This document shows positions 15,841-60,573 of a stretch of 64,000 nucleotides of DNA, piece by piece. Each line of letters starts with the position of its first letter. The stretch's first letter is position 1. Source of the stretch: Microthyrium microscopicum (taxonomy: Eukaryota); contig MU004234.1 of assembly GCA_010405405.1 (NCBI GenBank), positions 1,019,275 to 1,083,274 on the forward strand. The letters are read 5' to 3'. Made by a program: the position numbers and the translations under genes. Below the pieces are notes generated by a model, which was given only the letters and a program-made list of their open reading frames with translations, was not told the origin of the DNA and searched no databases.

Positions 15841-15849
15841 AACTTGTCC
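15841..15849 (+). repeat. Left target-site duplication AACTTGTCC
   Basis: Identical to 60565-60573. It sits exactly at the GC-to-AT-rich transition and abuts the TIR. Confidence 0.8.
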
Positions 15850-15872
15850 TTACCTCAGCGTGCTCAGGCTCT
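15850..15872 (+). repeat. Left terminal inverted repeat (~23 bp)
   Basis: TTACCTCAGCGTGCTCAGGCTCT; pairs with 60543-60565. Confidence 0.75.
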
Positions 15873-16521
15873 AATTCAGGTTTAGCGTCTAATTATTAAC
15901 GGTCGCTACGCTCCCTAACCCTAAATTAGAGCCTAAGAGACACTTTCGCCATTTATACTACAACTGCCTTAATGGATTTTTAGATTTCTATTTATTCTTT
16001 AATAGCACTACTACTACGTACAAATTATTAAATATTCCTATAAAAGGCTACTAAGTAAGTAATTATATATATAAAAATTAGGTTTATTTTAAGATTTAAT
16101 CCTAACTACGTTCTCTAGAAATTCCTCTATTTTGTTATACTCTAAGGAGCCTAGCTTAGCAAAAGTTAATAATTATATAATCTTTTATATATATATATAT
16201 AACTACTATCTATTATTACTACTTATAATATATTTTTATTCCTTCTCTTATACCTAGTATATTTATAAAATATATTTATAATGCCTTATTTTATATTATT
16301 AGCTAGTAATACTATTAGCTTTTCTATTATTACTTTTAGTAGTAATACTACTAGTAAGTTTATATTAGCTATAGCTTTATACTTTTACTATTCTCTTTAC
16401 GTATTTATCTTAATTTTAAGGTTTATATTATATAAATACGTGTTAATTATATTATATAATACGTTAAACTATTCTAACTATATGTAAGCCCTTCTAAATA
16501 ACGCGCTAGATTTTACTAAAA

Positions 16522-16770
16522 ACGTATTAAACGTGTCTAAAGACGTGTTAAACGTGTCTAAAGACGTATTAAACGTATCTAAAGACGTATTAAACGTTTA
16601 CTATAATATATTAAACGTTTATTATATCTTACTAAATGTTAGTTATATCTTATTAAATGTTTATTATAACGTATTAAACGTTTCTATAACGTGTTAAATA
16701 TTTCTAAAGTATTAAAACTTTTGCTAGTTATTTATTAAATGTTTTATATATTCTAAACGTTTTATAACGT
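16522..16770. repeat. 21-bp tandem repeat (ACGTRTTAAACGTRTCTAAAG) decaying into ~10-bp AAACGTT-type repeats
   Basis: Units start at 16522, 16543, 16564 and 16585, followed by degenerate copies. Confidence 0.8.
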
Positions 16771-16885
16771 CTATACTAGATAAAAGTATTAGATATTAAT
16801 CCTTATCTACTACTCTATATATAAATACTATACGTTAGTATTACTAATATAGATGTAGTTAATTAGAGACTTACGTATTATTATT

Positions 16886-19800
16886 ATGCCTAGTACTAAG
16901 CATAAATATAAAGTAGGGCGCAAGAAGAGTATAGGCTAGTCTAAGAGCTAGACTAAGGATTAACGTTATTACGATATAAAGGCAACTTAGATAGATCTAT
17001 CTAATAGTCCTAAGTAGGATATATCTTTCCTTAGCTTTATTAATAGACGTACTTATTCTACTCCCTATAGCCCTATACTATCTATAGCTACTAAATCTAA
17101 TAAATTTACTACTAGTAGTTAGGGCAATAATATAGCTAGTAATTATAATAGTACTACCTATAGTAATAGTAATAGTAATAGGGATAGTAATACTAGTAGT
17201 TATATTAGTAAGGATGTAGCTAGTAATACGACTAGTAGTGCTAGTACTAGTGCTCGTAATAATAAAACTAATAATAATCTTATTAGTAGTAGTAACGCTA
17301 TTAGTATTAATCCTATTATATATCTACTTAGTCTATAGTACGCTACTATACTAAATAAGTAGGTAGAGTACTTATAAGATTTTAATACTATAATTAAAGT
17401 TTTTATACTTCTAGCTATCTTTACTAATATACTTACCTAGGAGGATAATAAAGCTAGTATTTATATTACCTCTCTAGGCTAATAGTATTATAAAAATCTT
17501 ATAAAAGCTTTACTTAAAAGATTACTATATATATAGAAAGATAAGAGGTTAGAAGCTAAGCTAGGTTAGGTAGAATCTCTATATTATATAATTTTTAAGC
17601 AATAAGATATTATACTTATTACTAAAACTAGATATAGTAAAAGCATTATCTTCTAGGCTTTTAGTATTCTTACTAGTAAGATTACTCTTTAGGTTATTTC
17701 TTTTACTTTACTAGGTTTAGAGTAGTATAAAGATATTACGTAGCTTCTTAGTATAAACTTAGCTATTATTTATTTAGAGTTAATACTTAATAAATATACT
17801 TAAGTCTATTATAGGTTACTTAATAGTACTATTATATATTATCTACTTTTTCCTAAATAATTAATTAGTAAGCGTATATAAAAACTACTTTAAGATCCTT
17901 AATTCTAAAATAGACTTAGTCTAGTTACTATTAATAAGAAATATCTTATTAAGGACTAGGGGAAATTCTTTTAGAAGGAATATTCTTAGCTTTATATACT
18001 TTAAGATATTATTCTCTATTTTGTTATCTAGTTTAGTTACTTAGAGACTTTAATAGTAGAAGCTAAGAAGTTTTTACTTAATAAAAAAGGATTTTGGCTA
18101 TATAAAGAATACTAGGATATTGCTTATACTACTAGGTTTGTTTATACTACTATTAATAGGCTAAATTTAGGTCTTTAACTCTTATATATCCTAAAAGGGA
18201 AGCTTAGTAATTAGTTAAGATTAAACGTAGCTCTTAGTTAAGCTATTTAGAATTCTACTAATAAAGATTTATTTATAATACCTAAGTTTATATTATTAAT
18301 TATAATTTTCTTAGATAAGCTATTAGATATAATATCTATTCTTAATTACTTATAATAAGCCTTAGCGAAGTTATATTCTAACTTTACCTAGAGTAATTAG
18401 CTTTCCTTAGCTAGTATTTATACTATTATCTAATAGTATACTAGACTAATTTAGGATTTTAATTAGAATTTATAGTATATTTAGCTTAAGTAGTTTAATT
18501 TATTTTACTATATTATAGTTACTATAACTACCCTTAGTATAGGTATTAATATCCTAAATATATATTATATTATAATATAGGGTCTTCTATAAAGTAAAGC
18601 ATTAGCTAATCTAGTCTAGAAGATTAGTTAGATTAGTTATCCTAAAGCTAATTATATTCTTCCTTTTCTATTAGAAATAGGTTTAGACTTACTACTACCT
18701 ATCTTACCTAATCTAGATAACTAAACTTTCTTTAGAGTTAGGCTATTTAATTATATTCCTCCTTATCTACTAGTTATTATTTTCCTACTATACTAGTTAT
18801 TTAATACTTAAGGGTAGTATTTAGCGCTAAAGTCTCTTTATAAGAAAGTAAATAATATATATATAGTAGTAACTACTCTCTAGGCTAGTATTAGTAAGGT
18901 TAATACTAGGGGCTATTTATTATTAGCTCTTAAGTTACTCTACGTAATATAAAATACTAATTTTACTACCTAACTAAGTATTTTAGTTACTACTTAAGAA
19001 GCTTAGGCGTTTATTAATCTACTTAGTAGTCTAACTACTATAGCCTCTACTAGTTATAACCTAAAAAGTAATAAACTACTAGACTAGATATATATAGAAA
19101 TTAGGTATAGAGCTATAGTTAATTCTATCTAGTTAAAGTTAATTAATAGTATACTATTATTAAATTCTAACTTTAGTTAGCCTTACTATTATTATTAAGT
19201 TATCCTAGACTACCTTAGAGATATTAAATATTATTAAGGTACTTATATTAATTATAATTAATATTATAATATATATTAGCTAAATAAATTTATTATACTA
19301 CTACCTTAGCTTATTATAAAGAAGAAGCTAATAGTTCCTTATATAAAAACATAAAGGTAATATATCTTTAATAGCCTAAAATAGTAGGCTACTATATAGT
19401 TAGATAAGAAGTATTTAATTACTTATTAATAGCTCTTATTTAGAGAGTTTTAGTATATAGACTAAACTAAGTTAGTTGCTTTAAGTACCTTTTAGGATTC
19501 TACTAACTTTCTACCTCTTATAGATAATTCTATAAACCTAAATACTATATAGAATTAAATATATCTTATATATTCTTTTTTATAAAAGTAAAGAGTTATA
19601 GATATAGCTACTTATAGCTAATTATTAACCTTTTTTATTAGTTCTAACTATTAAGCTTACTATATAGTAGCATTTAAGTATAATAAACCTTCTAGGCGAG
19701 CTAGTTCTATAGTGCTATTATATTTATCTTTTATAGTTCTAAGTTCTAGTACTTATTATTATCCTTTTAGAGAAGTTAAGCCTATTAGTTCCTTACTAGT

Positions 19801-20314
19801 AGACTATTTACTAAGTTAGGTTACTTTAAGGTTTAAATAGTTATTACTTATTATATATCTAGCTACCTCTATTTTAGCTTCTTAACTAGTATTTCCTTTA
19901 TTATTATTATCTTAGCCCTTAATAGTATTATCTATACTTAGATTATTATCTTAAACTAAAACTAGGGTATTTCTTAATTTAAAAAAGAAATAAGGAAGAG
20001 GTTATCCTTATAAACCTAGATTAGCCTTTAAACTTTTAGTTAATAGTAGTCTCTTTTAACCTTTATTTATAACGCTAACTACTTCTTAGTATAATAGTAA
20101 TACTCTATATTCTTTCTTACTTAATATAGTTCTAAACTTATCTCTATTACGTATATTATTACTAAATAAGCCTATAAAGTATTAGCTACTAAACTATTTA
20201 AGTAGCCTCTTACCCTATAATATTAAAAGTAGTTAATTAAGCTTACTATCTCACCTTTTAGTAACTAGTAATTATAGCAAAAAGTAATAATAAGGATTAG
20301 AAACTAAACGTTAG
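16886..20314 (+). pseudogene. RIP-destroyed RecQ-like SF2 helicase (AcademH-type)
   Basis: In frame from ATG 16886. Raw ILITKTRYSKSIIF*A (~17610) de-RIPs to motif I AKTGYGKS. VTINKKYLIKD*G (~17925) is motif II, DExH..WG. *FSYLETL reads WFGCSxTL. IVTITTLSIGINILNI (~18515) is motif V, ATTALGMGINIPDV. *KIS*ISY is motif VI, QxxGRxGR. An RQC-like Cys cluster lies at ~19185-19280. Many TAA/TAG stops; the end is approximate. Confidence 0.88.
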
Positions 20315-23300
20315 CCTCTATATAATAATCTTAATTACTACCTTTTCTTATTTCTACCTTTTATAAATAGTCTAAATACTATACTATATAAAAGGATATA
20401 ACGTAGCTTAGCTATCTTATAATAAACCTAAGTAACTAATCTATTCTTAATGCCTCCTTATAGTTTAGAAAAGACTACTATACTAAGAGATAGGTTACCT
20501 TCTATATACTTATCCTATTCCTTTAATTTAGATATCTTTATTAATAAGCTAGTATATTAAGAGATAACTAAAAGTAGCTAAAAGGTATACTAGTCTAGGT
20601 ATATATTAGAGAATTTATCTCCTTATTAATATATTTAATAATATTTCTATATTTTATATGTTTTTAGATAGCCTTAATTATTATTAGGTTATTTATCTTA
20701 TAGTATTAAATATGCGCTAAGTTTTATAGAGAATAGTTAAGATTTTAGGAACTTTTTACGTATTTATACTTAGAATAATGTAGCTATTACTAATTATTAT
20801 ATTATTATTTATAAAGTTACGTAGATCCTATTTGTTAGTATTAAAGGTTATTAATATTAACTATATTTCCTTATATATGCTTTTAACGCTATTTATATAG
20901 CACTAATAGTATATTTATCTTAATAGATTTTAAACTATAATTCTATAATGTCCTCTATATCCTTCCTCTGCCTTAGCTATCTTAGATAGTACTACTCTTT
21001 ATTACTTTATCTTATTCTTAATCATTTGTATATTGTTATCTCTCACTATATATTAAATTCTATCTTTAAACGTTTAGTTACGTGTTTCCTCTTTTGAAAT
21101 AATTTAATAGTTAAATATTATTAAACGTTTTAATTAATAGATCTTAGAAGGTACGTTATAGGGTATTCTATTAATAAGATTAAAACTCTCGTTAGATTAT
21201 ATTTCTTATTGCCTTCTCTTTTAAAACCTAACTTCTTATTAGTCTAAATTTACTATTAAATTATTTCTAAAGTTTACTAACCTTTTAAATAGTAGGAACG
21301 TTTAAGGATTACTATTATAAGTAGTTAGTAGTAACTATTATTAACTAAATAGATAGTATTATTTATATAGGTATTTCTAGTTTATATAATTTGCTATCTA
21401 TAAAATCTCTTATCCTCTATATCTTTTTTCTCTCTCCTAAGTATTACTCTTTTAGCTTTAACCTATCTTTATAAGTTATTTAGTGCCTATTATACCTTTA
21501 AGTCTTATTATTTAGCCTCTAAGTAGCCTCTATTATGTTCTTAGTTTATCTACTTATTAATAGATACTTTAAAGAGAGTACTATCTATATATTCCTCTAT
21601 CTAGACGTTTATTATTACTATAGGCTACAATCTAGTTGCTTTTACCTCTAAAATCTCTTATAAGTTATTTTTTAAGGTTTTTTATTAAGTATCTAAGTAA
21701 TAATTTATAGTCCTAATATTATTATATCTTAGTTAATCTTATTAGGTTATAGGCCTAATTTTAGCCTTTATAGTAGCTATATTTCTTGCGCTACTCTTTA
21801 TTAGTATTATAATTAACCTTTCGTTTTAGACTTATCTAATCTATATCTATATAGTTAGGTTCTAGATATACTATCTACTCTTTAACTTCTTTTATTGCCT
21901 TTCCTATAACCTACTCTTTTATTACCTCTAAGCTTTGCTATTTCTATTAAGATATCTTTATTAATTTCTAAACCTATACTACTTAGTCTAGATTCTTTAT
22001 TTTCTTTAGATAAAGAGCTAGAAAATATTAATATTCTAGCTTCCTTTATTACTTTACTATTAAGATTGCTAAGTTTATATTATAATTACCCTTTACCTTC
22101 TACTTAAGAGCTATTAAATATAGCTATATCTATAGGATTAAGTAAAGATAATAATATAGTATCTAAGTAGGAAAGTTAACTAAATAATAATAAGGTCGTT
22201 TAATATATAGTTAAGAATAGGCTAATTTTAAATATAGCTCTTACTTTATATTAGGACCTTCTTAAGTATAATAGTAATAAGTAGCTATATCTAGATAGTT
22301 AGCTATAGCTTTAGGTATCTTAAGAAACTAAGTCTTCTATTTTAGATTTAGATAAAAATAAAATACTCTTTCGTTATATTCCTTATTCCCCTATACCTTA
22401 ATATTCTTCTTCTTTATAGCTTATAATAACTATAACGTTTATTTTTATTCTTTAACCTCTATTACTTAGGGAGGATTAGACTTAGTAGTATCTTACTTAT
22501 AATCTAGTAACTAATTAGCTCTTTCTACTAGTATAACTACGTATAGTTTATATTCTTTCTACTCTAATAGATTATAGTATCTTTAGTTTTACTTAGTATA
22601 GACTTATTACTCCCCTGCCTAAGTTTCTAAGTATTATATATTTACTATAAATATTTACTCTAAGATTTAGAGGACCTCTAGTTTATAATCTAGAGTTTAT
22701 AGCGTTAAATATTATATCTATACTATATCTAGCTTCTATAGTTTATAAAGCTATTTATATTACTCTTAAAGTTAATTAGTATAATTATATTAACTTTAAT
22801 TATTATAAGTTATATCTTATTAAAGAAGCTTACTAGTATCTTAATATACTAGAGTATTATTATTATCTTTATCTTTTATTAAGTCTAATAAGTGTTAGCA
22901 TACTTTTAGATTATTTAAGCATTACTAGTTAATAAGTATTAGGTCGTTTAGAGGCTATTCTTATTTCTATACTTTATACTTATTAAGATATAGCTGTTAA
23001 TGCTTATTATTACTATTAAGCTTAATAGCGTTAATTAAAGATAAAAAAAGCATAAAAAAAGTAACGTAAATTTACTAATACTTAGTATATATATTAGTTA
23101 TTAGATGCTTAGGCTAGGTATATATAATTTGCTACTACTATATAGTAAGCTATTAATACTAATATTACTATAAATACGCCTTAGCTATAGTAGCAAAGAC
23201 TAGTAGTTTATATTACTATTACTTCTATAGCTCTAACCTACTCTTTTTCCTTACCTTCTTAGCCTATAGGTTCTTTTTTATATTATTAACTTTTAGCTTC

Positions 23301-23949
23301 TTTATAGGCTACGTCTATACTTACGTTAGTTTCCTTATCTCTTACTATTATCTTATTAGTAGAAAGTTTTTTATCTATTCTAGCTATTAATACTATACTA
23401 AAAGTGTCTTTACCTCTACTAATAAGATCTTCTTTACCTAGGTCCTTAGATAAGGATAGTAATAATAAGGATTTTAACCTATTTAGTAACGATTAAGAAA
23501 TAAATAGTCTATCTATTAATAATAGGCGTAATAAACAAGATAATAGTATTAAGACTTAGGCTATTACTCCTTTATAGCTAATTATATATCTATAAACTAA
23601 AGCTAAAAACTATATTATAGCTAAACTTAAGGAAGAATTATAAGTTAGAGCTATACCTACTTCTTAACTACTAGCTTAGCTATATTATATACTTATACTA
23701 ATTCTTTTTTAGCTATCTCTAAATTTATAGTTTAGTTCTCCTATATTAGTTTAATATATATTAAGTCTAGTTAAGCTAATTAGTCTATATATAAGTAATA
23801 ATAATTATTATTCTCCTTCTATAGCTTATTACCTACCTTCTTTCTAAGCTTTAGTTGCCTCTATTACGCTTAGTAATTAACTAGTAATAAATACTTTATC
23901 TTTAATTTCCTTAACGTCTACTAACCCTTTTCGTCTAATTACCTCTATC

Positions 23950-24117
23950 TTAACTTCTACTCCTCCTATTAGTAATACCTAAGTTACTAGTAATTATAGT
24001 CTTATGCTTCTACCTCTCTATCTATCTTATATTTTAACTTCTACTTCTTCTATTAGTAATACCTATGTTGCTAGTAATTATAGTTTTATATATCTACCTC
24101 CTTCTCTATCTTGTCTT
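23950..24117. repeat. 84-bp tandem duplication (likely coding repeat of a relic gene)
   Basis: TTAACTTCTACT...ATTAGTAATACCTA...AGTAATTATAGT units start at 23950 and 24034. The period is divisible by 3. Confidence 0.7.
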
Positions 24118-24360
24118 ATAGATAGTATTTCTTTTACCTTAACTACTATATTATTTAAAGAGTCTAAACAAGGCTCTTAAAGTAGGATTCCTTAGATAAG
24201 GACTCTAAATAATTTACCTTAGTATAACCCTACTTAATTTAGCTAGTAGTATTATAAAGATCTAGCTATATATAAGAATAATACTAAGTAACGTAAATTT
24301 TAAGGTATTATAACTATTATAAAGACTAATTTTAGCTATTAAGTTTATAGTAATAATTAA

Positions 24361-24486
24361 TATACGCATTATAAAGAAAGTAATTATAAATATTAGGTTT
24401 ATACTAAATAGGATTATAAAGTTATTAAGAGCGTAACTAATAACTATACTTAGTATTACTTTAAATTCTAAAAGAATAGCTACTTA
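24361..24486 (+). pseudogene. Possible Zn2Cys6-like cysteine cluster relic
   Basis: Raw YTHYKESNYKY*VYT...NYT*YYFKF*KNSYL. Reverting TAT/TAC>TGT/TGC gives CTHCKESDYECWVYT-x13-NCAxCRFEFRKNGCS (C-x2-C-x6-C...C-x2-C-x8-C). The de-RIP reading is ambiguous. Confidence 0.35.
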
Positions 24487-26107
24487 TTAGTAAATTACGT
24501 TTTTAATAAAGAACGCTATATTAAGGCTTAAAGTAAGAAAACTAAGAAGTATTTAGCAAGTAAAGAGGCTTAGAAGCAAGCTAATAAGAAGAAAGCTTAG
24601 TAGTCTTACTAATAATAATCTAGTAATAAAGATTAGAATAAGAATAATAATAGTTAGTAAGTTACGCCTCCTAAAATCTCTATCTCTAATTACTATAGGC
24701 CTAAGTATTAAGGGCCTTCTTTACTACCTCTACTAGGACTAGTAATAGAAGTTTAGTTTCTCTCCTTATATTAATAGTTAAGTTTAAATTATAATTATTA
24801 TAGATCCTATTATATAGTTATAATTATATTTCTATTAGATCCTATTTAAATCTAAATTATATAGTACCTAAATTATATAATTTAATTGCTACTATAAAGA
24901 ATATAGTCTATATACTTTATTATTATAAATTTTATATTACTTCCTTCTAGTTCTTAGTCTAAGATCCTCTATATTTATATTTCTATAGCTTCCTTTACTT
25001 TTACTAATATATTACTTATATATTCTATATATTTATTATATTTAATAGTAAGCTCCTCTAGTCCTCTAATAACGTTTTCTACTATTATAGTTTTAGTAGG
25101 CTAGTACTATTAGACCTAGAACTCTTAGGAAATAATAATATAAAGGATCTTTATAGCTAAGAGTAGAGTCATTTATAATACCTTAGTTTATACTTTCGCT
25201 ATCTTAAGTTCTAATAGTAGTATAAAAAGATCTAGAGAAAAGACAAATAATATATTATAGCTAAGAGTAGATTTATCTATAATACCCTAGTTTATAATTT
25301 TACTATCTTAAGTTATAATAGTAATATAAAAGGTCTAGCAAAAAGGTAAATAATACTAATAAGAGAGTTTAATAATATTAAGGTATAAAATTTAGTTTAT
25401 TAAATATAGGTAACTAAGTATTTATAGTAAGTAGCTATATTATTATTTCTTAGGAAGGTTAAGCTAGAGGTAATTAAATACTTAGATCTCTTATTTATAA
25501 GGCTACATTATAATTATTAATAAAGCTAAGTCCTATTATAGCTAGTATACTAGTAAATATACTATAAAGAATATTAAATATTTTAAACGTTTTGCTATAG
25601 ATACCTATATAGCCCTAAATTAGTTTACTTACTCCTTCTAAATCCTAACTACATTATATACTTTTATATCTTAATCTTATATTTCTTATAGTAGCTTTAA
25701 GAGACTTTTCTTTATATAGGTGTCTAGTAGTATTCATTACTATTTACTTTATTTAAGAGTCTATATCTTAACGTCTAGAAATATATAATAACATTTAATA
25801 ACTTTTAATAACTTTTAATAACTTTTAATAATATTTAATAACTTTTAATAATTTTTAATAATATCTAATAACGTTTAATACCTTTTAATAGTTTTTAAAG
25901 CTTTTTATAGATTTTCGCCTTACGTTACTATATATAACCTTATAATTATCCTTATTCGTATTCTTAGTTAAAGGCTTTTATTATTTTCTCTTATACTACT
26001 TCTTAACTAACTTTAAATATAGTTATATAGGTTTCTTTCCTTAGGGGAGTAGTTATATTTAATAACTATATATATATTTTAGCTAATATATTTCGTAATA
26101 AGAAAAG

Positions 26108-26117
26108 NNNNNNNNNN
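26108..26117. other. Assembly gap (10 N)
   Basis: Run of N. Confidence 1.
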
Positions 26118-46520: not shown

Positions 46521-49500
46521 AATATATATTATATAGGTGGCACGGCTAATACTAGTACGTTAGATTCTAAGGAGCGATTTTTAAAAGGTACTTATCTAAC
46601 TATATAATTAATATAAATACTTGCTAACTATATAAGATTTTAGCCTTTAAGAGAATATACTATATATATTTTATATACTATATAAAAAGGCGTCTCTTTT
46701 ACTTATATTTAGGACGTATACTCTATTTAATGCAAATATATTTAGATATTTATAATACCTTAGTAAATAAATAGGAAGTAATTAGTAGATATAGAATATA
46801 GTAAAAGTCTATATAATATATAAGTATATTTCTTAAAGTATAGCTATTTATATAAGGTACGTTATAAGATCCTATATATTAAAAAGGCTAAGATATACTA
46901 ATATATTAGAAGTAATACTATAAGTTATATATTTCTAAATTATTTGCTATATCTATAGTATGTATAAAAATAAGGATAAGCCTACTTGCTAAAGCATTTA
47001 AATCGCAAAAGGATAATTAAAGTTAGAAATAAAGAATAACGTAGGTTATATATAAAAACTAAACTATAGGTAGGTATATTATTTAACGTTAGCCTAAATA
47101 AGTCTAACGTTAAATAACATACCTAGTTAACGCTTTAATATTAAGCTATAAATAGAGCAAATATTAAGCTAATATTATAGTTTCCTAAGTTAAATCTTTA
47201 AATATTAAGATTAACTAAACTAGTAAGCTAATTAATACTAAATCTTTAACTCCTTAGCTATAGACTTTACTAATTTATCTATAATACTAATTATTAACTC
47301 TAGTTTCTAGAAAATAGTAAGAAGTAAATATAAATAACTATTATTTCTAATATAATATAAGCATAATATAGGCTAATTATTACGTATAAGTAAGTATAAT
47401 TAGTTTATTAACTAGTTTTACTAACTACTATACTAGGATAGATGAAAGCAAGATAGTATATTTAAGATAACTAAGTAGAATTAAATAGGTAACTAGATAA
47501 ACGGCTATTTATATTATATTTATATAAGTAAGTATTTCTTAAATTTTAGACTTTCTATATACTAATTATACATCAATAATATATAATATAATTACTATTA
47601 CTAAACTATTACTTAGAGGTATGTCTTAATAAGTACGTTAAGTTTCTAGTAACCTATAATACTAATAAAATAGATATAGAACGCTATAATACTTATAGTA
47701 TACTATATTCTTATTACTTATTATATATATAGATGTATTAAATTAGCCTTAAGATGCTTAGTCTATAATAAAATATATTATTACGTTTATTACTATCTAT
47801 AAAATATACTAAAAGTAAGACCTAACTAAATGCCTATTATAGTCTTTTAATAACCTATAACTATTACCCTAAACAAGATAATTAAAAGAGTTCTAGGGAT
47901 AGCTTATTATAATACTATAGGCTCCTATAATTATTAGCTAAGAAGGACTAGTTAAATTAAGTAATAGTAAAATACTAATTATAGCAATATTACCTCTTAT
48001 AACTATTACCTATTAAGATATACCTAATTTAAGTATTAGAGAAAGTCTTTATTCTAATACTATAAGCTAACCTATAAGCCTAAATACCCTAAAGAATATT
48101 ACTACTAAAGCTAAAAACCTACCCATCTACTACTAGCTTAATAGAAACTATTTATTAATTTATATAGAAGATATAATATAACTACTACTCTTTAGTAGTT
48201 ACTAAATTATATAGTTACTTATACTAAGTAGAATTCTACTTACTAATAATATAGCCTTTATAATTAATTAAGATAGTAGTATTTAGACATAAGGCTAAAC
48301 TTAATACCTACTAAACTAGTACTATATATACTATATAAATATATAAGACTACTTACCCTATCCTTTATATAACTAGCAATATAGTACTTATAAATAAGTA
48401 AAATAGTATCTAGAGCCCTAATAACTCTTACTAAATAGGTATCTAAGCTACTATAGAAGAATATAACTTAGTTATGCTAACTAAAGTCTTAGCGTTAGTA
48501 TTCTTAAATATAACTTATAAATTATATCTTAACCTAACCTTATTATTCTTACCTACTAGGCCTTCCTCTACCTCTCTAACGAAGCTAAGTAAACTACTTA
48601 AATCTGTACTACTCTTAATACTTACGCTAGCCTTATTAACCTTAATTTACTTACTATTTAGACTCTTCTCTCTATATTCTTTACTAGCTTATCTATCCTA
48701 CGCTTATAGCTTTATATTACCCTTACTAACTATACTACTACTATCTTATATAATTTTACTCTATAGGCTTACTAGCTTATTAAAGGAAGCAAACTATTTA
48801 ATACTTATAATATATTTTGCTATACTATTAAACCTAACGCTATTATTTTGCTTAATTATTTTAGTTAACTAGGCGAAATTATTAGTAGTCTCTAAGTAAC
48901 TAATATTATTTACTAAGTTAACTAAGATAAAGGCATAAGCCTATATAACGATTTTAAGGCTACTTATTATAGTAGTATAAGTATCTATATCTGCCGCCTA
49001 GAAAGATATAGCTAGAGTAAGGATAAAAAGTACTATAACTATACTAGAGTACTACTTAGAGCTATTACCTATTTTATATTTAGATAAGCTCTCTATTAGT
49101 ATAATAGAATATAAAGGACTTTACTCTATAGTAGGTAACTATAGATTAGTTAGACTATCTATAACTAGTATTATAACTACTTTAAAGACAATCTAGGACA
49201 AAAAGAATAAGAAATAAGAATTAGAGTACTATAAAGTCTAGGAAGTATTTATTTAGGTAATTTAGCTTAGTAATAATATTACGAGTAACGAATTCTATAA
49301 TATAATAATGGCTACCTTTATTAATTACTATAAAGAGTTTACTTTATAGTACTACTATAGAGTAGCTAGACTACCTCTAGCTAATAGTTACTACAACTAC
49401 TTTAAGGTAGTTTCTATATAAAGATTACGTATAAGGAAGTTAAATATAGTTTATTATTAGAATATACTAGTTATACTTCTATAATAGGTATTTACCTAAG

Positions 49501-51478
49501 TTCTAGTTATATAAGGGAGCGCAAGTATTAATTTTAAGTAGAATAAAGATAGAGTTATTAAGGGCTAGATGCCTAGAACTATAAGCGTAGTAATATCTTT
49601 ATTAATAATATAGTATACCTTTAATAAAAGCTACTAAATAGATCTAAACGTATATTAATTTATAGTAATATTATACTACTACTTTTAAATTATATCTTTA
49701 CTATAGTAAGACTAATAAGGTATCTAGTAATAACGCCTAAGAATTATAAGCATAGTAGCTAGATACTTAAAATTATAGGTATAAAATAAGTAGAGCTTCT
49801 ACCTTCTTACTAATATCTTACTATAGATTAACTATACTTCTAAGACTTTATAGTCTTCTAATAGACATTAGAAGAAGAAGCATAGCTTATAATATTAATA
49901 TTAAACTAGATAGAGCAACTAAAGGCTATATTCTAAGTAATAAAAGACCTAGTATAAGTAGCATCCTTACCTTATTATACTTATCTTATATTATAGCAAT
50001 ACTAATAATATTAATACTTATTAGCTTACTAAGGATATACTTTTTCCTATCTAGTCTCCTTAGTTCTCTTAGGCTATCTACCCTTAGTAAGTAATTTTAT
50101 AGCCTTAACTATAACTTCTATATAAAACTTTACGTATCTTAATAAAAAATTTATTATCTAATTCCTAGTACGTATAAGGAATTTAGAAACTAGAATATAA
50201 AAGATAATTTATAGAATTATTACTAAATAAAAATAGAATAGCTAAGTAAGCTAGTTAATCTTTAACTTCTTTCTTAGTATATTATATATCTATTTATAGT
50301 ATAATTTTAAGTTACTTACTACTAGAGTTAGTAGTACTACTAGGTAAAGTAATAAATAAAGATAAAATATTAAAGAATAAAATATTATATAGTAGTAGAA
50401 GTTTATAGTAAGTTATAGTTTATATAAATATACTATATTATATATTATTATATAGTAGTAAATAGCTTTATATAATATTATATAATATTAAACGTATTAA
50501 CTACTATTAAACTATATTAAATTATATTAAACTATATTAAACTATATTAAATAATATTAAACGTTATTAAACGTTATTAAATACTCCTATATAAATACCT
50601 AAATAAATACTTAAATATTTTAAATGTTTTAGCTTAGATTAGGGATTACTAAAGTATAAGAACCTAGGTAACAAGTTAATACTTAGGATGCTTTTACTAA
50701 TAGTCCTTATATAATAAGATATATATTTTTAATAAGTTTATTTCACCTAATTATTTTTACTTAATTAACTATAAATTAATACTTATAATAGTAATTATTC
50801 TTCTACTAGACTATCTATATAGACAATATAATCTATATACTATAAGTAATAGCATTCTATTCTAATATACTATATAAAAAAGAATTATTAATAAACTAAC
50901 CTTCCTTATAATAATCTAGTCTAGCTATTTCTATTAGTAAGGTTCTATATATTTACTAATAAAAAATAAGAACTCTATAAATACTTTTACTAATAGTACT
51001 AGGAAGTAGTCTAACGTAGTATTTTATAATTAAATTAGGCTATACTAAAAGTAAATTAATATAGTAGTTTTTTTTTTAATAGCTAATAGTAAATATCTTT
51101 AAGCCTACCTATTAGCGCCTATAATTAGTACTAGCCTTAATAACAAAGAAATAATATATATAACTAGCTACAATACTTCTAATTAATATACTCCTATATA
51201 CTGCCTACACTTAGGCGACATATACAAGTTAGTTTCTTATAATAAGGGTATAGCGTATATAATAAAGTAAGTATAACTTATTAATATTTTAATAATACGT
51301 ACGTACTAATAGTAATAAAAACGTAAATAACGATACTTAAGTATAACTATACTATTATACTTAGATAGAGACTAGTTATACGTACTACTATCTATTAATT
51401 ATACTATATTAGATATTAGTTATACTATATACTAATACTAAACTATTCTAAGTAAGAGGTTATATATACTAAGACTAT

Positions 51479-52038
51479 NNNNNNNNNNNNNNNNNNNNNN
51501 NNNNNNNNNNNNNNNNNNNNNNNNNNNNNNNNNNNNNNNNNNNNNNNNNNNNNNNNNNNNNNNNNNNNNNNNNNNNNNNNNNNNNNNNNNNNNNNNNNNN
51601 NNNNNNNNNNNNNNNNNNNNNNNNNNNNNNNNNNNNNNNNNNNNNNNNNNNNNNNNNNNNNNNNNNNNNNNNNNNNNNNNNNNNNNNNNNNNNNNNNNNN
51701 NNNNNNNNNNNNNNNNNNNNNNNNNNNNNNNNNNNNNNNNNNNNNNNNNNNNNNNNNNNNNNNNNNNNNNNNNNNNNNNNNNNNNNNNNNNNNNNNNNNN
51801 NNNNNNNNNNNNNNNNNNNNNNNNNNNNNNNNNNNNNNNNNNNNNNNNNNNNNNNNNNNNNNNNNNNNNNNNNNNNNNNNNNNNNNNNNNNNNNNNNNNN
51901 NNNNNNNNNNNNNNNNNNNNNNNNNNNNNNNNNNNNNNNNNNNNNNNNNNNNNNNNNNNNNNNNNNNNNNNNNNNNNNNNNNNNNNNNNNNNNNNNNNNN
52001 NNNNNNNNNNNNNNNNNNNNNNNNNNNNNNNNNNNNNN
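51479..52038. other. Assembly gap (560 N)
   Basis: Run of N. Confidence 1.
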
Positions 52039-53564
52039 ATTAGCTTAATTAGATAAAATATATAATACTACTAATTATATTAAACCCTACCTAACTAAAT
52101 AACCTAAATACCTTAAAAGCAATGCTATTAAAATTAGATTATTATTAAATATACTATATAAGTAACCTAGCATACTACTAATATAATCTCCTTTCTTCTT
52201 TATTATAACTCCTATCTATCTAATATTATTATTTAAGTATATAAAATACTATATAGGACTAGAGACTAGATAGTAATTTAGGAGGCTACTACTATATAAT
52301 AGCTTATTATTAAAGATCTAACTATAGAAAGGTTCTAATATAAAATACTAACTAGTTTTATAGTAATACTCTAAAAGCTAGAAAGTTCTAATTAAAACTA
52401 CTTTCTAACTCTCTAGTAACGATCTAAAAGCTAAGATATTTAAATTAAAACTACCTATTAGTTATCTAGTAACAATCTAAAAGCTAGCGTATTTAAGTTA
52501 AGACTACTTACTAATAAACTAATATTATATTTACTAGCTACTCCCTTTAAACTTTACTATATAATAGAATAAATAAGTAGTAAGTATAGTATATTTCTTA
52601 AATTATATATTTTAAGAGATTTCTAATATTATAGTAGTCCTTAAACTAGTAATTACGCTATAATTTTAGCTATACTATCCTAAGCTTCTCTCTAGAAGAT
52701 TCTTATTAAAGTTAAAACTATAATTATATAAGACTTAGAGCTATTTAAGGAGCCTAGTACTCTAAAGAAGTTATCTAAGACTATTTATTAGTTCTTTAGC
52801 CTTATTTTAATAGCTAGAATATTTAAGTTAGAACTACTTAAAGATTAATTATTTAAACTTAAGACGTATCTATTATCTATTTAGGTTACTACTATTATTA
52901 GCCCTTAGGAAGATATTTATCTAAACCCTAATATAAATAAGATTAGCTTATTATAGTAATTATTCTTTATACAATATTAGACTTAAAAGATTTAGGTCTC
53001 TATTATTATTTATACTTAGGAATATTTTAATCTAAAGCTTAATATAACTAGAAGTAGCTTACTATAGTATAGACTATATTTAAATATAATATTAATAATA
53101 ATAAGTATACGCTAAATCTAGCCTTTAATATATTTAAACTACATAATAGATATAACTAAGAGTAGTTAAGCCTATTCTAGGCAGACTCTAATATTATTTA
53201 ATACTCCTTATAACTACTAAGCCTTTAGAAGCTTTAGGAATTTACTTACTTACTATAGCACTAGTTATATTTAAATATAAGGTTTTAGTTTAGAAGAGCA
53301 TATTAGTATATAATATACTAAGTAATAATAATAGAGACCTCTAGCCTAAATTAAAGTTAATAACTATAGGTAATAAGTACTTACTAAATTACTCTTCTAT
53401 ATATACTAATAAGAGTACTAGTTACTATAAATAAATAATTAAATATAATAGTATACTAGCACTACTTAAAGTTAGTAACTATAGTATACGTAAAAGGTAA
53501 GTCTCTCTTTATATTATTTAACTAAGACTAATATCTATAGTATTATACTCTCTTAATTCTATAT

Positions 53565-55114
53565 TCTTAATAATACTACTAATATAACTATTAACTACTC
53601 TTCTCTAGATTATAGATATCCTTATAGACTACTTAAGACATACTTAGCTTTATATCTTTAGAACTAATAATACTAACATCCTTATATTAATAAGAAGTCT
53701 AAATTCACTTATAGCATATTAGCTATATTAGAAATAAACTTAAACATTAGTAAAAACATCTCTATATATCTTACTTAAGACTATACTAATTAACGCTAAG
53801 AACTATAAATATACTAATTATTAGCTATTCTATTTAATTAATAAAATAAGTTACCTAAATAGTAAAAGCTAAATATAAAAGCAAAAATACGCCTAAAAAG
53901 CCTAACTTAAGAAGCTTATAAATAGGATACATTACTAGAACTCGTACTATTAATATAGCTAAAATTAAGGCTAGGTAGTTAAAATCTCTAAGTTTAATAA
54001 TAGGAACCTCCTTTATATTAATAAGGCTTATATATAAGATACGCTACTAGAACTTATACTATTAATATAGCTAAAATTAAGGCTAGGTTATAAAATCTCT
54101 AAAATTAATAATGCTAACCTTCTCTATATTAGTAAGAAATCTAAATTTACTTATAGTATATTACCTTCCTTAATTATAGATATAATTATATATAAAAATA
54201 GTTATAAATATATTCCTTAAGATAATCTTAACTAACTTTAAAAACTATAAATATACTAAAAGCTAGCTAATACTAACTNNNNNNNNNNTCTTAATAATAT
54301 TACTAATATAACTATTAACTACTTTTCTCTAGATTATAAATATCCTTATAGACTACCTAAGATATACTTAGCCTTATATCTCTAGAACTAATAATACTAA
54401 TATTCCTATATTAATAAGAAATCTAAATTTACTTATAGTATATTAGCTATATTAGAAATAGACTTAGATATTAGTAGAAATACCTTTATATATTCTCCTT
54501 AAGACTATACTAATTAACGCTAAGAACTATAAATGTACTAGTTATTAGCTATCTTATTTAATTAATAGAATAAGCTACCTAAATAGTAAAAGCTAAATAT
54601 AAAGGCAAAAATATGCCTAAAAAGCCTAACTTAAGAAGCTTATAGATAGAATACGTTACTAAAACTTATACTACTAATATAGTAAAAGTTAAGGCTAGGT
54701 AGTTAAAATCTCTAAGTTTAATAATAGAAACCTCCTCTATATTAATAAGGCTTATATATAAGATATACTACTAGAACTTATACTATTAATATAGCTAAAA
54801 TTAAGGCTAAGTAGTTAAAATCTCTAAGTTTAATAATAGGAACCTTCTTTATATTAATAAGGCTTACGTATAAGATATACTATTAGAACTTATACTATTA
54901 ATATAGCCAAAATTAAGGCTAGGTTATAAAATCTCTAAAACTAATAATACTAACCTCTTTTATATTAATAAGAAATCTAAATTTACTTATAGTATATTAC
55001 CTTTCTTAATTATAGACGCAATTATATATAAAAATAGTTATAAATATATTCCTTAAGATAATCTTAACTAACTTTAAAAACTATAAATATACTAAAAGCT
55101 AGCTAATACTAACT
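53565..55114. repeat. Tandem block duplication (714 bp and 826 bp) around a 10-N gap, with internal ~112-bp sub-repeats
   Basis: Copy 1 spans 53565-54278 and copy 2 spans 54289-55114. Both start TCTTAATAAT and end AGCTAGCTAATACTAACT; copy 2 has one extra 112-bp unit. Confidence 0.88.
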
Positions 55115-56783
55115 AACTAATATCTTTTAAATTAATAATAAGAACCTTATACTTCTAAAGATAATATATAGTTTGCTATAGACTTATTATTAAGTACCTT
55201 AAATATAGGCTCCTAGTAGAATAAGCCTATTATTAGCTACCTTAAGTATAGATTTATAAATAAGCTAAAATAGTCCTAGTTAAATTAATTAAGGCTAGTT
55301 ATCTAATATTAAGAATTTTAAATATACTAAACTTAAACTCTTACCTACTATATACTTAATAAAACTAGGATCTTCTAGTTATATAATAGATTATAAAGAG
55401 ATACTTAAGTAACTAAAAGCACTATACTAATTAAAGATAATAACTTTATTATAGTATTAAAATATAACTAAATAAACTAGTAAGACTTAACTATTACCTA
55501 GTAAAAATATAATTATTTAGAACTTAAAGCTATTTAATAAGCTAGCTTTACATAGTAGCTATAAAAAGTACTAGTTTCTTCCTAAGCTAATAAATTCTAA
55601 CTTTATTCCTAAGATCCTAGTTAATAAATTTTAAGTCTTATATTATAAATAGTATAAAGGTTTTTACTTATATTATAAGTTTAATATCATACAAAAGTAT
55701 AATAAAGACTAGTTCTTAAAGACGCTTTATTATTTAAGTACTAATACTAGTTTATTTACTTAGTAGAAATAATAGATTAGTAATAGTAAATAGGAAAATA
55801 AAAAGTACCTTTCTACGTACTCTATTTACCTTAATAGTATTAATACTTAGCTAATTAATTCTATAGAACTAGCTTTTATAAATAGAGTAGCTTACTATAT
55901 ACTACGCTATTAGGAACTACTTTAACAACTAGGTAGTTTAGATAGTTAGACTTAATATATATCATTAAGTTGCTATAGTATTATATAGCTACCTTTAAGT
56001 TATATCTTTAATATCTTAAAACTAAGAAAATTTCTAGTAATAACATTTAGAATAAAAATAATAAGAAATAAGAAGTAAATTATTATAAAGTCTAGAAAGT
56101 ACCTTTCTATACTATTTAGTTTATAGATAAAATACTTAAGAGTATCCTCTATATATAGATAAAATAGGATAAACTATATATTAGCTAAAATAAAGTACTT
56201 ACGTCTTAATACGTATAGTTTAACTAAATAAGATATCTTAATATTATTAAATTAGCTTTAATTATTTAATATATTTAGTAGAAGTACTTATACGCTATTT
56301 CTCATTTATAGCTACTTTATATATATATAGATAAGGAATAGTAGCTAGCATATAACTAATAGGTTAATCTAACTATTAGTAAGTAGGAGAATTATAACTA
56401 AGGTAATATTTATACTAGTTTATATTACTTAAAAGAAATACTACGCTATAGTATAAAAAGATATAGATAGTATATAGTATAAAGTAATTAACTTTTAAGC
56501 TATAACTAACTTATATTAATAAAGGCTAATAGATAGTTATATATAAATAACTACGTAAGTACTTTTACTATAGTAGTAATTAGAATCTATAAGAGTTCTA
56601 TAAAGTATTATAATATAAGAAGCTAACGTATAAGGTATTATATTAATTTTAATCCTCTCTAATATCTTATTATAGGTTCTACCTAACTATATTCTAAAAC
56701 GTATCTTACTATAAGTACTAATATAATTTAGACTATAAATATAATACTACTATAAAAAGGTCTAGACATTAGATTATTCTATA

Positions 56784-59700
56784 TTATACCTCTATTAAAT
56801 TAAGAGTAGAAAACTTAAAAATTTCTAGTACTTTATAATTAAGGTTATTTTTAATAAGTTTAAAACTATTATTATTATACTTATTAAAATGGGCGTTAAT
56901 AAGTAACCTATTATTATTATTTATATTAATATTATCTTTTATATAAGGGTTAAATAGAATCTAGCTATTTAATCTACTAATATTAGGTCTAATTATAGTA
57001 TTAAGGTTATTATTATTTAGATTTTATTACTCTATACATAATATTAGAAAATTTAAACTAAGAATATTATTATTAACTATATTATTCTTACTAGGTAGTT
57101 TAAACTTGCTTCCTTTAGCCTATAAAGGAAGCATAAAAGTATTATTAAACTTATTAATAAATACCTAAAGCTTCTCTCTAAATTAGGTAAAGATATTAAG
57201 AGATATATATAGCTCTCTAGCGCTAATAGTAGGCTCTTAAGGCTTAGTATATCTATTCTTATTTAGATTAATTACCTAAAGATATATATTATTAATAGTA
57301 GTTATTATTTTATAAACTCTATTAATACATTACTTAAACTTAAACTTAAATAGATTCTAAAGCTTATAAGAATACGTATTACTTAAATAGATATAATTAA
57401 ACATAACCTAAGGATTATAAGTAGAATTCTTATAACTCTTTATATTAATCTTATAAGTACTATTTAGATATTTAAGTCTAAGATTCTATACCTTAAACAA
57501 CTTCTTATTACCTTTCTAATTAATAAAGGCAAAATATAGAATAGCCTTATAAAGTTATAGCGTATATACTCTAAGTAATAATAACTATTACTAGTATAAT
57601 AAAAGATATATATATTTATATTAGCCTACCTTAGTAAAGAAGATAGTTATACGTAAAAGTAATAACTAGAATAGACTAATATTACTTATTTTAATTACTT
57701 ATTTATAATAAAGAAAGAGCAAAACTTCTTAAAAATACTAATACTACGTTTAAAAGTTAAAGTCTTTATAATTACTAATAAAAGACGTACCTTTATTCTA
57801 GGCTTCTTTAGATAAAGTCTTATCTTATATCTACTTAAGAATATTAATATACTTATTAAGTATTAAAAGATTAATAATATTATTAATCTTAGTTTAGTTA
57901 GCGTAAAAGTCTAGATTATTATTAATACTCTTATAAAACTTCTTTTTAGAAAAAATATATAGAAAGATAGACTCTATGCATAACCTAAACCTATAAAGTA
58001 ATAGTAGCCCTACTTTATTAAACTTTAAGTTAACTTATAAAGGGATTAAACGCTCCTAAAAACTAGTATTTATACTTAATATATAAACTTTATTAAGATA
58101 AGAAGTATTACTTATAGTACTTAAATATATATATATTAATACTTATTAATAGTTAAACCCTATATATTAATTTCTAGAATATAGTAGAATAAAATCTTTA
58201 TAATTAAATAGTAGATAGGCTTTAACTTACTTAGTCTTTATAGAATAACTATTTAATAGTAATAACTAATCTTTATAAACTAGAAATAAATAAGTTTAGA
58301 AATTATCTTTTTCTTTATAACTTATATCCTAAGGTACTATTAAGTATAAAGGTAATCTATTCTTATTAGTTTCTATATATATAGTATTAATATAATAGTT
58401 AAATATCTTACTAGTACTAAGTATAGAAGAGGTATATAATTTTAACCTTAGTTAGTTATAAAATATCTAATAGAATACTTAATACGTACTAGCCTTAGTA
58501 CTAGAATTATTATATATAGTACTAAGTTAAAAATATTTAGTAGTAGTTAAAAGGATAATATCTATAAAGAGCTAAGTAGAGACTCTATTCTTATTATCCT
58601 TAAATATATTCTTTTAAAGGTTTAGATACTATTCTAAAAGCTACTTATATAAAAGTACTAATTATAAAACTAGACTATACTATTTAAGTTTATAAGTATT
58701 TATATTAATTCCTAAAATAAAAGGTAAGTTAAATATAGTTTTAATATCTAATAAAATAATAGAGTTAAAATTAGTTTTAAAGAAGCCTTCTTAAGAAATA
58801 GAAGAATACTTAGTAAGAACTACTACTATAAAATTTAGCTATTTAGTTATATTACTATTAACCTTATTGCGCTTAGTATTTTATATATTATAGTTATTAA
58901 AAGTTATAGCTTAACTATTATCCCTTTAGGCTATACTTTTTAAGAAAGCTTAAAAAAAGATTAGTATATATAACTAGATATAAAACGTAATTAGCTAATA
59001 CTAAATAAATACTAAGAAGAAAAGTATACAATATACCTTAAAAGTAAAGAATAAAGTTTATATAATATTTCCTAACGACTTATTTAAAACGTTTAAGACT
59101 ATTTAAAACGTTTAAGTTTCTTAAAACATTTATACTATTTAAAGAGTTAGTATTATATTAAACGTTTTAAACGTTTTAAACGTTTTAAAGAGTAGTACTA
59201 AATAATTATATATCTTTAAAGTAAATAATAATTAAATGCTAACGTTTATAATAGCTATATATAAATATAAGATAAAGGGAACGTTTTAATAATATACCTT
59301 AGCTTCTTCTAAGATAGTATTTAATATATTTAGAGATATAGTATAACTATATATAATACTTATCTTATTTAATAATTCTATTAATTACCTCTTTATACTA
59401 GTTATATAAAGATATATACCTAGAATCTTAAAGAGAAAATTTAACTATTATTACTATTAAAAGTAGCAAACTATAGCTATTATATAATAGATAGCTTATT
59501 TAGTAGTTATCTTACTCTAAAAAGTATTTTCTCTAGCTAGCTAATTATATTACTAATTACGTATTAATCTTAGAAGGAATACTATCTACTAGGAAGTATA
59601 TATTTCTATATTAGTTATAGTAGAAGAGAAGGTAAGATCTATAATAGAAATATTTATAGAGAATTTACTAAACTAGATAAACCTTTACAAAAGAAGAAAG

Positions 59701-60300
59701 AGCTCTTACTTAAGAAAAGATTTAAATATAAGAAGAGAAATAAGCTAATCTTTCTTAAGGCGCTTTACTAATAAAGTAAATAGTATCTTTATAGTATATA
59801 TAAGTATAGTATGCTAAAGCTATACTATATAGAGATATAAATTCTCTATATAGATAATTTTACTAGTATAGGTAGTATTCCTAATAAATATATAAATTAA
59901 CTATAGAAAAGAAACATTTTTAGCTAATATAAACTAAATAAACTTATATAGTATCCTATTAATTATAAATATATTATAAGTACTATAAGTAGATAGATTT
60001 AGAGTTATAGCTAATAATATAGTAGAGGTAGGTACTAAAGTAGATAATATAGTACTACTAAGTAGTATACTAATAGATACTATATAAGAAAGAGTACGTA
60101 AAGTAACTAAAAAAGAGAGTATAGTTAAAAGAATAAGATAACTATTTCATTATTATAAGAATAGTTATAATAAAACGCGTAAGTAAGTAGATAGAGCGCG
60201 TAGTTAAGTTAATCTTTATAGTAATATATTATATTGCTAATAGCTAGAGAGATTACTAAAAAATAACTAGTAAGTAGCATAAATAATTAAGAAGTAATAA
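56784..60300 (-). pseudogene. RIP-destroyed Academ-type (DUF6589) transposase, multi-exon
   Basis: Minus-strand raw reading and de-RIP, in the correct order: ILGIYLYITSIKR*LIELL = LGMYLHxTGVKRR (~59400); AITFNNYN = FDNxN (~58895); LVYKD*L = VYGDQL (~58270); ILLYSRN*Y = LPxxGxWH; VIKISNIS = AIKxGDIG (~57690); FIN*KG..NLRLKYLNSTYK = VNxxG..DLxLEHLNxxxK (~57470-57530); then an acidic tail. Introns at ~58950-59297 and ~57754-57790. The start is approximate. Confidence 0.82.
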
Positions 60301-60542
60301 ATATTAATTAAATAATAAAATTAAATATAATAAGAAAGATCTTACGTATAAAAAATATAGATAAAACTAAGAATAAGCTAAGGTAGATATAGTATATAGT
60401 ACATAAGTCCCTCTTAGACTCTTAGAGAAGAATTAGGTTAGTAGAGTATAATTAGTAGGTTTAAGGGGTTAAACGTTTTCAAAAGTCGACTAACCTAATA
60501 GGGTTAGTCAACGTTTGACAAACGTTTAACTTCTTCCCGTAG

Positions 60543-60565
60543 AGAGTCTAAGTCCACTAAGATAA
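60543..60565 (-). repeat. Right terminal inverted repeat (~23 bp)
   Basis: Reverse complement is TTATCTTAGTGGACTTAGACTCT. The last base overlaps the first base of the 9-bp direct repeat. Confidence 0.75.
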
Positions 60566-60573
60566 ACTTGTCC
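60565..60573 (+). repeat. Right target-site duplication AACTTGTCC
   Basis: Identical to 15841-15849, at the AT-to-GC transition. Confidence 0.8.

Follow-up and report, generated by a model that had tools for sequence, protein, structure and literature searches.

A 44.7-kb RIP-mutated block in Microthyrium microscopicum bounded by the ends of a RecQ-like helicase/DUF6589 transposon family: a candidate giant AcademH-like element

Large cargo-moving elements of fungi are now almost synonymous with the Starships, and within the portions of the literature retrieved by our search the sole DDE-type cargo carrier bounded by inverted repeats was the 14-kb ToxhAT. Another lineage of DDE-type transposons relevant to the present locus is AcademH. 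In the available parts of the respective reports, AcademH elements are described as generating target-site duplications (TSDs) of 9 or 10 bp, as against 3 or 4 bp for AcademX (PMC10045372), and as being present at low copy number in Basidiomycota, Ascomycota and Mucoromycota (PMC10799480), while Academ elements as a whole are commonest in rust fungi and were without a Pfam match in 2017 (PMC5751038). The domain of unknown function DUF6589 is mentioned in stripe rust by a preprint whose authors describe pathogenic fungi as enriched in it (bioRxiv 10.1101/2025.10.24.684071). Our literature search recovered no link between DUF6589 and a pairing with a RecQ-like helicase, and where the domain was mentioned it was not as a transposase. 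Here, we analyze a window of 64,000 nucleotides (the whole stretch from position 1,019,275 to 1,083,274 of contig MU004234.1, assembly GCA_010405405.1) from the ascomycete Microthyrium microscopicum, in which a first-pass annotation, made from the letters alone, had read an AT-rich block at 15841–60573 as one giant, cargo-carrying AcademH-type transposon rather than a Starship. We found that the block possesses the termini, the TSD and relics of both mobility genes of a transposon family that couples a RecQ-like helicase with a DUF6589 protein, and we are highly confident of both the element and the family as described below. Our tentative reading of the whole, held with somewhat less than even confidence, is that it arose through one insertion of a DNA transposon of the cut-and-paste type, since killed by repeat-induced point mutation (RIP), that was already large when it moved; transposition as a unit of at least 30 kb is, to us, similarly close to, yet short of, an even proposition.

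The block is sharply bounded between 16 and 60 kb of the window, with a GC content of 0.18–0.31 compared to 0.43–0.52 in the flanks (the lowest bin, 0.109 at 51–52 kb, falls on a run of N). Both indices of RIP follow the same boundaries: TpA/ApT is 1.55–2.01 in the block versus 0.57–0.85 in the flanks, and (CpA+TpG)/(ApC+GpT) is 0.05–0.30 versus 1.21–1.44. Precisely at these boundaries, at 15841 and 60565, lies the 9-mer AACTTGTCC, in agreement with the first-pass claim of an identical repeat at both compositional edges. The same 9-mer is also present at 5801 and 45606, making four matches in the window against 0.16 expected. These two additional sites, which the earlier reading had itself pointed out, were considered as further junctions and set aside as chance, their likeness to the true junctions stopping at 10–12 bases. 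Immediately inside the boundaries, the segment 15851–15872 compared with the reverse complement of 60543–60564 shows 14 of 22 positions identical, seven transitions and one transversion, i.e., 21 of 22 alike in a purine/pyrimidine alphabet. Adding the T at 15850/60565 gives a 23-bp reading with 15 identities, seven transitions and one transversion; thus, the proposed terminal inverted repeats (TIRs) of about 23 bp, differing mostly by transitions, stand. A degenerate pattern of these ends matched the two block ends and nothing else in the window (0.02 matches expected by chance). As no further copy of the end motif is present in the window, the ends do not represent two elements bracketing a region.

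Analogy with the relatives discussed below favors a target duplication of 8 bp over one of 9. The ends of the relatives start with TTA, and on this ground the left TIR, TTACCTCAGCGTGCTCAGGCTCT, occupies 15850–15872 (+) and the right TIR, reading TTATCTTAGTGGACTTAGACTCT on the minus strand, occupies 60543–60565 (−), with the TSD copies ACTTGTCC at 15842–15849 and 60566–60573; the ninth shared base, the A at 15841 with which the 9-mer starts, is then a chance match. This parse also absorbs a T at the left end that would be a stray surplus base if the duplication were 9 bp. The left TIR is free of RIP mutation and fits the family consensus TTAYCTCAG..CTCAGRCTC, whereas the right one is RIP-mutated. 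So delimited, the element spans 15850–60565, or 44,716 bp as assembled, which is five to eight times the length of intact relatives. This length is approximate because two of the three runs of N in the block (gap 1, 26108–26117, 10 N; gap 2, 51479–52038, 560 N; gap 3, 54279–54288, 10 N) are unbridged, and because read contigs of all four runs have 36 letters in place of 26080–26324 (245 bp).

A second, outer inverted repeat of 26 bp surrounds the insertion, with its left arm at 15716–15741 (+), about 100 bp outside the element, and its right arm at 60658–60683 (−), about 85 bp outside and identical to the left at 25 of 26 positions. The arrangement suggests that the insertion lies within an inverted-repeat unit of about 245 bp whose halves, now the flanks, would once have adjoined. 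Since the flanks share both the TSD and this matching outer repeat, the two ends belong to one insertion event. The outer 26-mer is itself nearly palindromic, and its two readings start like family ends (TACCTC/TATCTCAG). No clear duplication was found around it, with TTAATAAAG and GATGTAAAG agreeing at 5 of 9 positions. The target of the element may have been a related mini-element or a sequence prone to hairpin formation.

The relics of the two mobility genes were located with family hidden Markov models (HMMs) built from the open reading frames (ORFs) of relatives and applied unfiltered to all six translated frames of the window; three places matched. The first, at 17495–18613 (+), is the DEAD and Helicase_C part of a RecQ-like superfamily 2 helicase (E 1.4e-34, HMM positions 76–426 of 907). 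The second, at 57132–58943 (−), matches the DUF6589 part of the transposase without interruption (E 7.5e-43, colinear positions 5–557 of 607), and the third, at 59295–59741 (−), matches the N-terminal part of the same gene in the same frame (E 2.7e-11, positions 153–300 of 312). Thus, the predicted RecQ-like helicase relic near the left end and the DUF6589-like relic just inside the right end (57132–59741 in all), converging on it, are both recovered, the helicase being visible to sensitive methods only. When its frame (17300–20599, +, with X at stops) was used as a phmmer query against 1.84 billion proteins, it yielded 160 matches at E ≤ 0.001, the best at 8.9e-28 with 26% identity over query residues 61–437. 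All 12 homologs scanned, proteins of about 870–1150 amino acids, contain DEAD and Helicase_C, and the nearest solved structures to the best homolog are E. coli RecQ (4.8e-21), followed by WRN, RECQ5, RECQ4, RECQ1 and BLM. The same relic gave no match at E ≤ 10 in a phmmer search of PDB sequences and none at E ≤ 1 in a word-indexed homolog search. Similarly, a Pfam scan of 17000–19999 (+) and three frames of 56000–60565 (−), again with X at stops, returned no family at all. As even the DUF6589 relic was missed, despite its family HMM value of 7.5e-43, default Pfam scans are blind to RIP-mutated genes of this kind, and the lack of a DUF3435 tyrosine recombinase in the same scan says little for or against a Starship captain near either end.

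To place these relics in context, we turn to 80 metagenome loci, which were gathered by means of an alignment of 15 helicase matches. In these, a helicase gene on the plus strand is followed by a converging gene split into two ORFs: the C-terminal ORF contained Pfam DUF6589 in all six cases tested (E 7e-64 to 5e-70), while the N-terminal one had no Pfam family in the four tested. Both genes are present in 24 loci (14 of them from one metagenome, probably a single genome's family, and hence not independent) and are convergent in 23. The exception is L051:1430-5369, where helicase and transposase genes follow each other in tandem, in that order and on one strand. The clusters of DUF6589 proteins are mostly from Basidiomycota, with one cluster from Mucoromycota, and the named homologs are from ascomycetes. 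The distance from the helicase end to the 3′ end of the transposase gene is 0.07–6.2 kb in 22 convergent loci, excluding L026 with its overlapping genes, and about 2.0 kb in most; in the window it is about 37 kb. Intact relatives are about 5.3 to 8.8 kb long.

The end motif of the window element is also present in the independent loci L014, L018, L019, L027, L039, L040 and L045, starting with TTA in each (e.g., L014 TTATCTCAGTGAACTCAGACC; L039 TTATCTCAGCAAGCTCAGACT; L045 TTACCTCAGCAAGCTCAGACT; L018 TTATCTCAGCAAGCGACTCAG). The single-metagenome family provides ten copies of 8,538–8,757 bp with ends TTATCTCATAAATCAGAC and 8-bp duplications, six perfect and four with one mismatch; in L014, the motif occurs twice, bounding a 664-bp mini-element with a perfect 8-bp duplication; and in L018 it stands at both ends, 7,662 bp apart, without a target duplication. 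Altogether, 11 of the 12 insertions of relatives that were checked have the 8-bp duplication. L063 measures no less than 5.28 kb and has inverted ends of 99 bp. Several loci have ends lying back to back: in L014:930-1635 the mini-element abuts the left end of a helicase-bearing element, with CCCATGCA preceding both, and right and left ends are 4 bp apart in L040:17241-17455 and about 11 bp apart in L045:700-780. These suggest insertion beside existing ends or tandem arrays. A TIR-like site at L045:758, with a neighboring S-adenosylmethionine synthetase gene as the possible cargo of a relative, was rejected, as the element copy in L045 spans 9066–17603 only. In L001:5787-11972, 6.2 kb separate the two genes and contain ORFs of 256–315 amino acids without a Pfam match, one of which is common to L003 (4450–5166); this ORF could be a third gene of the family or a small piece of passenger DNA.

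These features also bear on the idea that the block is a degraded Starship in which the helicase and DUF6589 genes form a mere passenger transposon. Its size, in the lower Starship range, and the ascomycete host with RIP would suit such an origin, but the block terminates precisely in the TIRs of the helicase/DUF6589 family and is flanked by the 8-bp duplication which that family makes, the spacing between each gene relic and its own end is as usual for the family, and no second, internal pair of family ends is present; we therefore consider a Starship hardly credible. The first-pass view of one transposon that is not of the Starship type gains from the same family-typical ends and duplication, together with the usual convergent order of both mobility genes.

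The central question is then what the element contained when it moved. The expanse between the genes comprises 12.8 kb of RIP-mutated DNA at 18614–31404, with no protein match, N gap 1 inside and the undetected C-terminal part of the helicase expected within it; a nested Ty3/Gypsy-type long terminal repeat (LTR) retrotransposon of 7.66 kb at 31410–39064 (+); and 18.1 kb of RIP-mutated DNA at 39070–57131, likewise with no protein match, which holds a mini-element, two arrays and N gaps 2 and 3. The retrotransposon is defined by its LTRs at 31410–31637 and 38838–39065, which are identical at 228 of 228 positions in the purine/pyrimidine alphabet and hence differ by transitions only, by the 5-bp duplication CTAGC at 31405–31409 and 39065–39069, and by Pfam matches to RT_RNaseH_2 (E 2.6e-17, in 34345–36459) and RT_RNaseH (E 1.9e-09). 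The mini-element, of 0.75 kb at 44868–45616, has 76-bp inverted-repeat arms that agree at 92% of positions in the purine/pyrimidine alphabet, contains the third AACTTGTCC and is less RIP-mutated than its surroundings (GC 0.30–0.48). Its shortness or rarity may have kept RIP away, or it may be a late arrival; an 80-amino-acid open frame lies in this region at 45392–45634 (−). The arrays are a short-period tandem array at 46036–46542 and a duplicated array, 90–93% alike, at 53565–55122, straddling N gap 3.

The remaining interior, about 29 kb, gave no protein or repeat signal, a weak negative given that RIP at 22% GC hides most signals. The first-pass annotation had estimated about 36 kb between the mobility genes and about 28 kb without a recognizable nested transposon. 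A phmmer comparison of 333 ORFs of relatives (at least 120 amino acids) with the window produced 80 matches at E ≤ 1e-3, and the 65 of these at domain E < 1e-5 that were inspected comprised the helicase and the transposase only. A Pfam scan (E ≤ 1) of five low-stop frames (48084–49511 +, 29800–30828 +, 23905–24891 −, 45266–46084 − and 40570–41388 −) detected no family, which is no evidence of their being non-coding; stop-codon density proved too noisy a guide to coding and is confounded by strand skew. No host gene was recognized in the interior, and we regard a recognizable host-gene cargo as unlikely. The label "cargo-carrying" is thus not supported in the sense of host genes, and the 7.66-kb Gypsy and 0.75-kb mini-element are later insertions. 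The former coding content of this passenger DNA is unreadable after RIP.

Such contents lend themselves to a different history, one in which an ordinary family element of about 8–10 kb later served as a landing pad for unrelated transposons and the resulting nest was flattened by RIP; the present size would then be uninformative as to what the element carried when it moved. We consider this a substantial possibility, though one that falls clearly below an even chance. It accommodates the Ty3/Gypsy element with its own 5-bp duplication and the 0.75-kb inverted-repeat element inside the block, the small size of the relatives (5.3–8.8 kb, with 0.07–6.2 kb between genes), the shifts of nucleotide skew in blocks and the lack of a recognized cargo gene. 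Moreover, RIP being uniform along the block, all of its parts should have been repeated, which would be true of nested transposons. However, a RIP-tolerant self-comparison of the block revealed no second LTR pair and no further long inverted-repeat pair, and when the frames of the nested Gypsy were compared by phmmer with the rest of the block, a second Gypsy-like relic was sought in vain, with negative scores only among the matches listed; no second retroelement protein relic appears among them.

Further evidence on this point came from the reads of four public runs, X1–X4, whose contigs were placed on 15000–34999 at a likeness of at least 80%. X1, X2 and X4 each yielded a pair of contigs whose match starts at 15850 and is preceded by other sequence (consensus agreement 0.65). 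As they start matching at exactly this base after differing flanks, the left terminus exists at other sites in the genome, and the proposal that the element was multicopy is borne out. The contig from the unique flank stops at 15870–15882 in all four runs, 21–33 bp inside the element, which fits the start of a repeat there. Over roughly its first 100 bp (15850–15950), the element is GC-rich and spared by RIP, whereas the right end is mutated; since the contigs of all four runs break within this stretch, it is probably near-identical among copies. The paralogous contigs listed lie just past the helicase relic (19246–19685, 41 of 440 positions differing) and farther in (21758–22189, 59 of 432; 23734–24163, 47 of 430; 28319–28766, 47 of 448). 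These are 86–91% identical to the window, with differences that are almost only transitions, compared to 82–84% for the Gypsy pieces. Summed contig depth is even over 16.3–31.0 kb (144–300 in X2 against 115 in the flank; 379–908 in X3 against 104) and leaps at 31.0 kb, the Gypsy start, to 3394–5216 in X2. Over the Gypsy, it is about 12–75 times that of the flank, and 5–6 contigs have other flanks before 31410, its first base.

Taken together, these data are most simply explained by a single low-copy unit, delimited by the element end, that comprises the left 15.5 kb, of which 11–12 kb lie past the helicase. Three aspects run counter to a nest here: the low and even depth over 16.3–31 kb is unlike that of the Gypsy, the identity is the same in the piece just past the helicase relic as in the three farther in, and the exact left terminus is common to other copies. 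Accordingly, the earlier suggestion that the unit "moved as a whole" receives favoring evidence for its left 15.5 kb; it is not proven, the evidence being limited to that part.

A number of observations weigh against an element that was already large. All relatives with measurable ends are small (5.3–8.8 kb), making a member of 37–45 kb an outlier, and at least 8.4 kb of the interior (the Gypsy and the 0.75-kb mini-element) is later insertion. The C-terminal half of the helicase was not found in three frames of 18500–24000, and both GC and AT skew shift in blocks along the interior in a mosaic-like manner. The four runs derive from one sample, probably the source of the assembly itself; the copy evidence from them covers 15000–34999; contig depth does not equal copy number; and none of the paralogous contigs, at 430–450 bp, shows colinearity of the interior in other copies. 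Depth and identity would look no different if a number of low-copy transposon families were nested here. One joint connects 28522 to 31341, with 30 letters on its shorter side, such that another copy may be without the intervening 2.8 kb; short joints of this kind (21–31 letters on the shorter side) were treated as unreliable. Finally, N gaps 2 (560 N) and 3 (10 N) are unbridged, and gap 1 alone is spanned by contigs.

The last point raises the prospect that the block is in part an assembly artifact, in which scaffolding across N gaps has mixed copies of a multicopy element (about 90% identity) or other repeats. The three N runs, the 36 letters found in contigs for 26080–26324, the near-duplicate array across N gap 3 and several places where the window's own base is in no contig are all in keeping with this, and the scaffold is unreliable in detail at 26080–26324 and across the gap 3 array. 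But both unique flanks share the duplication and the outer inverted repeat, so that the ends stem from one insertion; contigs without a single difference cover the interior at 18471–19028 and 20993–21765; and gap 1 is bridged in four of four runs. We thus judge an artifact of this kind very unlikely.

Returning to the element as a large mobile unit, the following scenario can be proposed. A family member with a RecQ-like helicase gene near its left end, a converging gene for a transposase of about 900–1000 amino acids with a DUF6589 core near its right end, inverted ends of 20–23 bp starting TTAYCTCAG and 8-bp target duplications would already have been large at transposition, carrying at least about 11–12 kb after the helicase as passenger DNA. 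It would have risen to three or more copies, all of which RIP then destroyed, and a high-copy Gypsy and a mini-element probably landed inside it during this RIP-killed history. The DUF6589 protein, as a putative DDE-type transposase with an RNase H fold, would mediate excision and integration at the TTA-ended repeats through putative staggered cuts 8 bp apart, with the helicase serving as an accessory. The more ambitious version, wherein an AcademH-like DDE lineage mobilized itself in several copies with 25–30 kb of passenger DNA between its genes, strikes us as doubtful.

The catalytic assignment draws on an AlphaFold model of a DUF6589 ORF (predicted local distance difference test score 87.8, predicted template modeling score 0.90, 49 sequences). 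A search independent of Foldseek placed the P-element transposase on top (Z 6.5, root-mean-square deviation 5.6, 245 aligned), followed by Hermes (Z 5.9, root-mean-square deviation 7.2, 235 aligned), retroviral integrase cores (Z 4.1–4.8), and then ISCth4 and Transib. With RNase H-fold transposases topping the list, the model hints at a DDE enzyme into which a helical domain is inserted. Against this stand the Foldseek search of the model, which returned no PDB match at E ≤ 0.001, and the Z values of all fold matches, which are under the safe level of 8. hAT elements make 8-bp duplications, with which the duplication observed here agrees. In fold, the DUF6589 model bears a weak resemblance to the P element and Hermes (Z 6.5 and 5.9). 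No hAT or P family domain was detected among the ten partner ORFs scanned, six of which contained DUF6589 only and four no Pfam family.

These findings have several implications. The pairing of a RecQ-like helicase with DUF6589, along with shared ends and 8-bp duplications, offers a testable function for a Pfam family of unknown function, and the intact 8.6-kb copies (loci L031-L060) are usable for experiments. Were the more ambitious version above true, DUF6589 would be assigned the role of transposase in a family that duplicates 8 bp at its targets, and the Pezizomycotina would possess a second kind of giant cargo-carrying element unrelated to Starships. Likewise, if a helicase-assisted, inverted-repeat transposon does move tens of kilobases, surveys that look for captains only would miss a gene-moving class. 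As a point of method, heavily RIP-mutated genes escape default Pfam scans, but filter-free HMMs from the close family find them at E 1e-43.

How does this family compare with described systems? The AcademH likeness, as far as the consulted parts of the descriptions go, lies in a putative DDE-type transposase gene accompanied by a second gene for a RecQ-related helicase, as well as in inverted termini, a low number of copies and a fungal range. The two genes are indeed paired in 24 loci, and the 23-bp ends share their motif with relatives. The difference lies in the duplication, which is 8 bp in the window and in relatives, with 9 or 10 bp in none, as against the 9 or 10 bp cited, and in the 44.7-kb size of the window copy, the comparison being by description only. 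The taxonomic distribution and the Pfam history fit an identity of DUF6589 with the Academ transposase core, a circumstantial argument. Membership of the family in AcademH appears probable on balance; the label in the first-pass annotation agrees with the separate RecQ-related helicase and the inverted ends but not with the duplication. As this duplication, the sole defining feature that could be measured, is 8 bp rather than 9–10 bp, we name the family "AcademH-like".

Kolobok elements, for their part, have TTAA as their target. KolobokH, like the present family, comprises DNA transposons of fungi that encode a RecQ helicase, but in the available part of its description the helicase lies downstream of the transposase domain (PMC9587614), whereas here the two are separate convergent genes with an 8-bp duplication and without TTAA. 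Membership in KolobokH was considered and is ruled out by this gene arrangement and by 8-bp duplications of varied sequence. ToxhAT, the hAT-like carrier of ToxA in wheat pathogens, is, in the parts of the report consulted (PMC12506042), likewise DDE-type, bounded by inverted repeats and able to move passenger DNA. It differs in having a transposase of another family, no helicase and a known cargo gene, and the element here is three times larger, with passenger DNA that is unreadable. Starships, as described in the sections of the reports at hand (PMC9156397, PMC12134995), share with this element a large size, an ascomycete (Pezizomycotina) host and possible passenger DNA, but they are defined by a tyrosine recombinase "captain", whereas the ends and both mobility genes here are those of the helicase/DUF6589 family.

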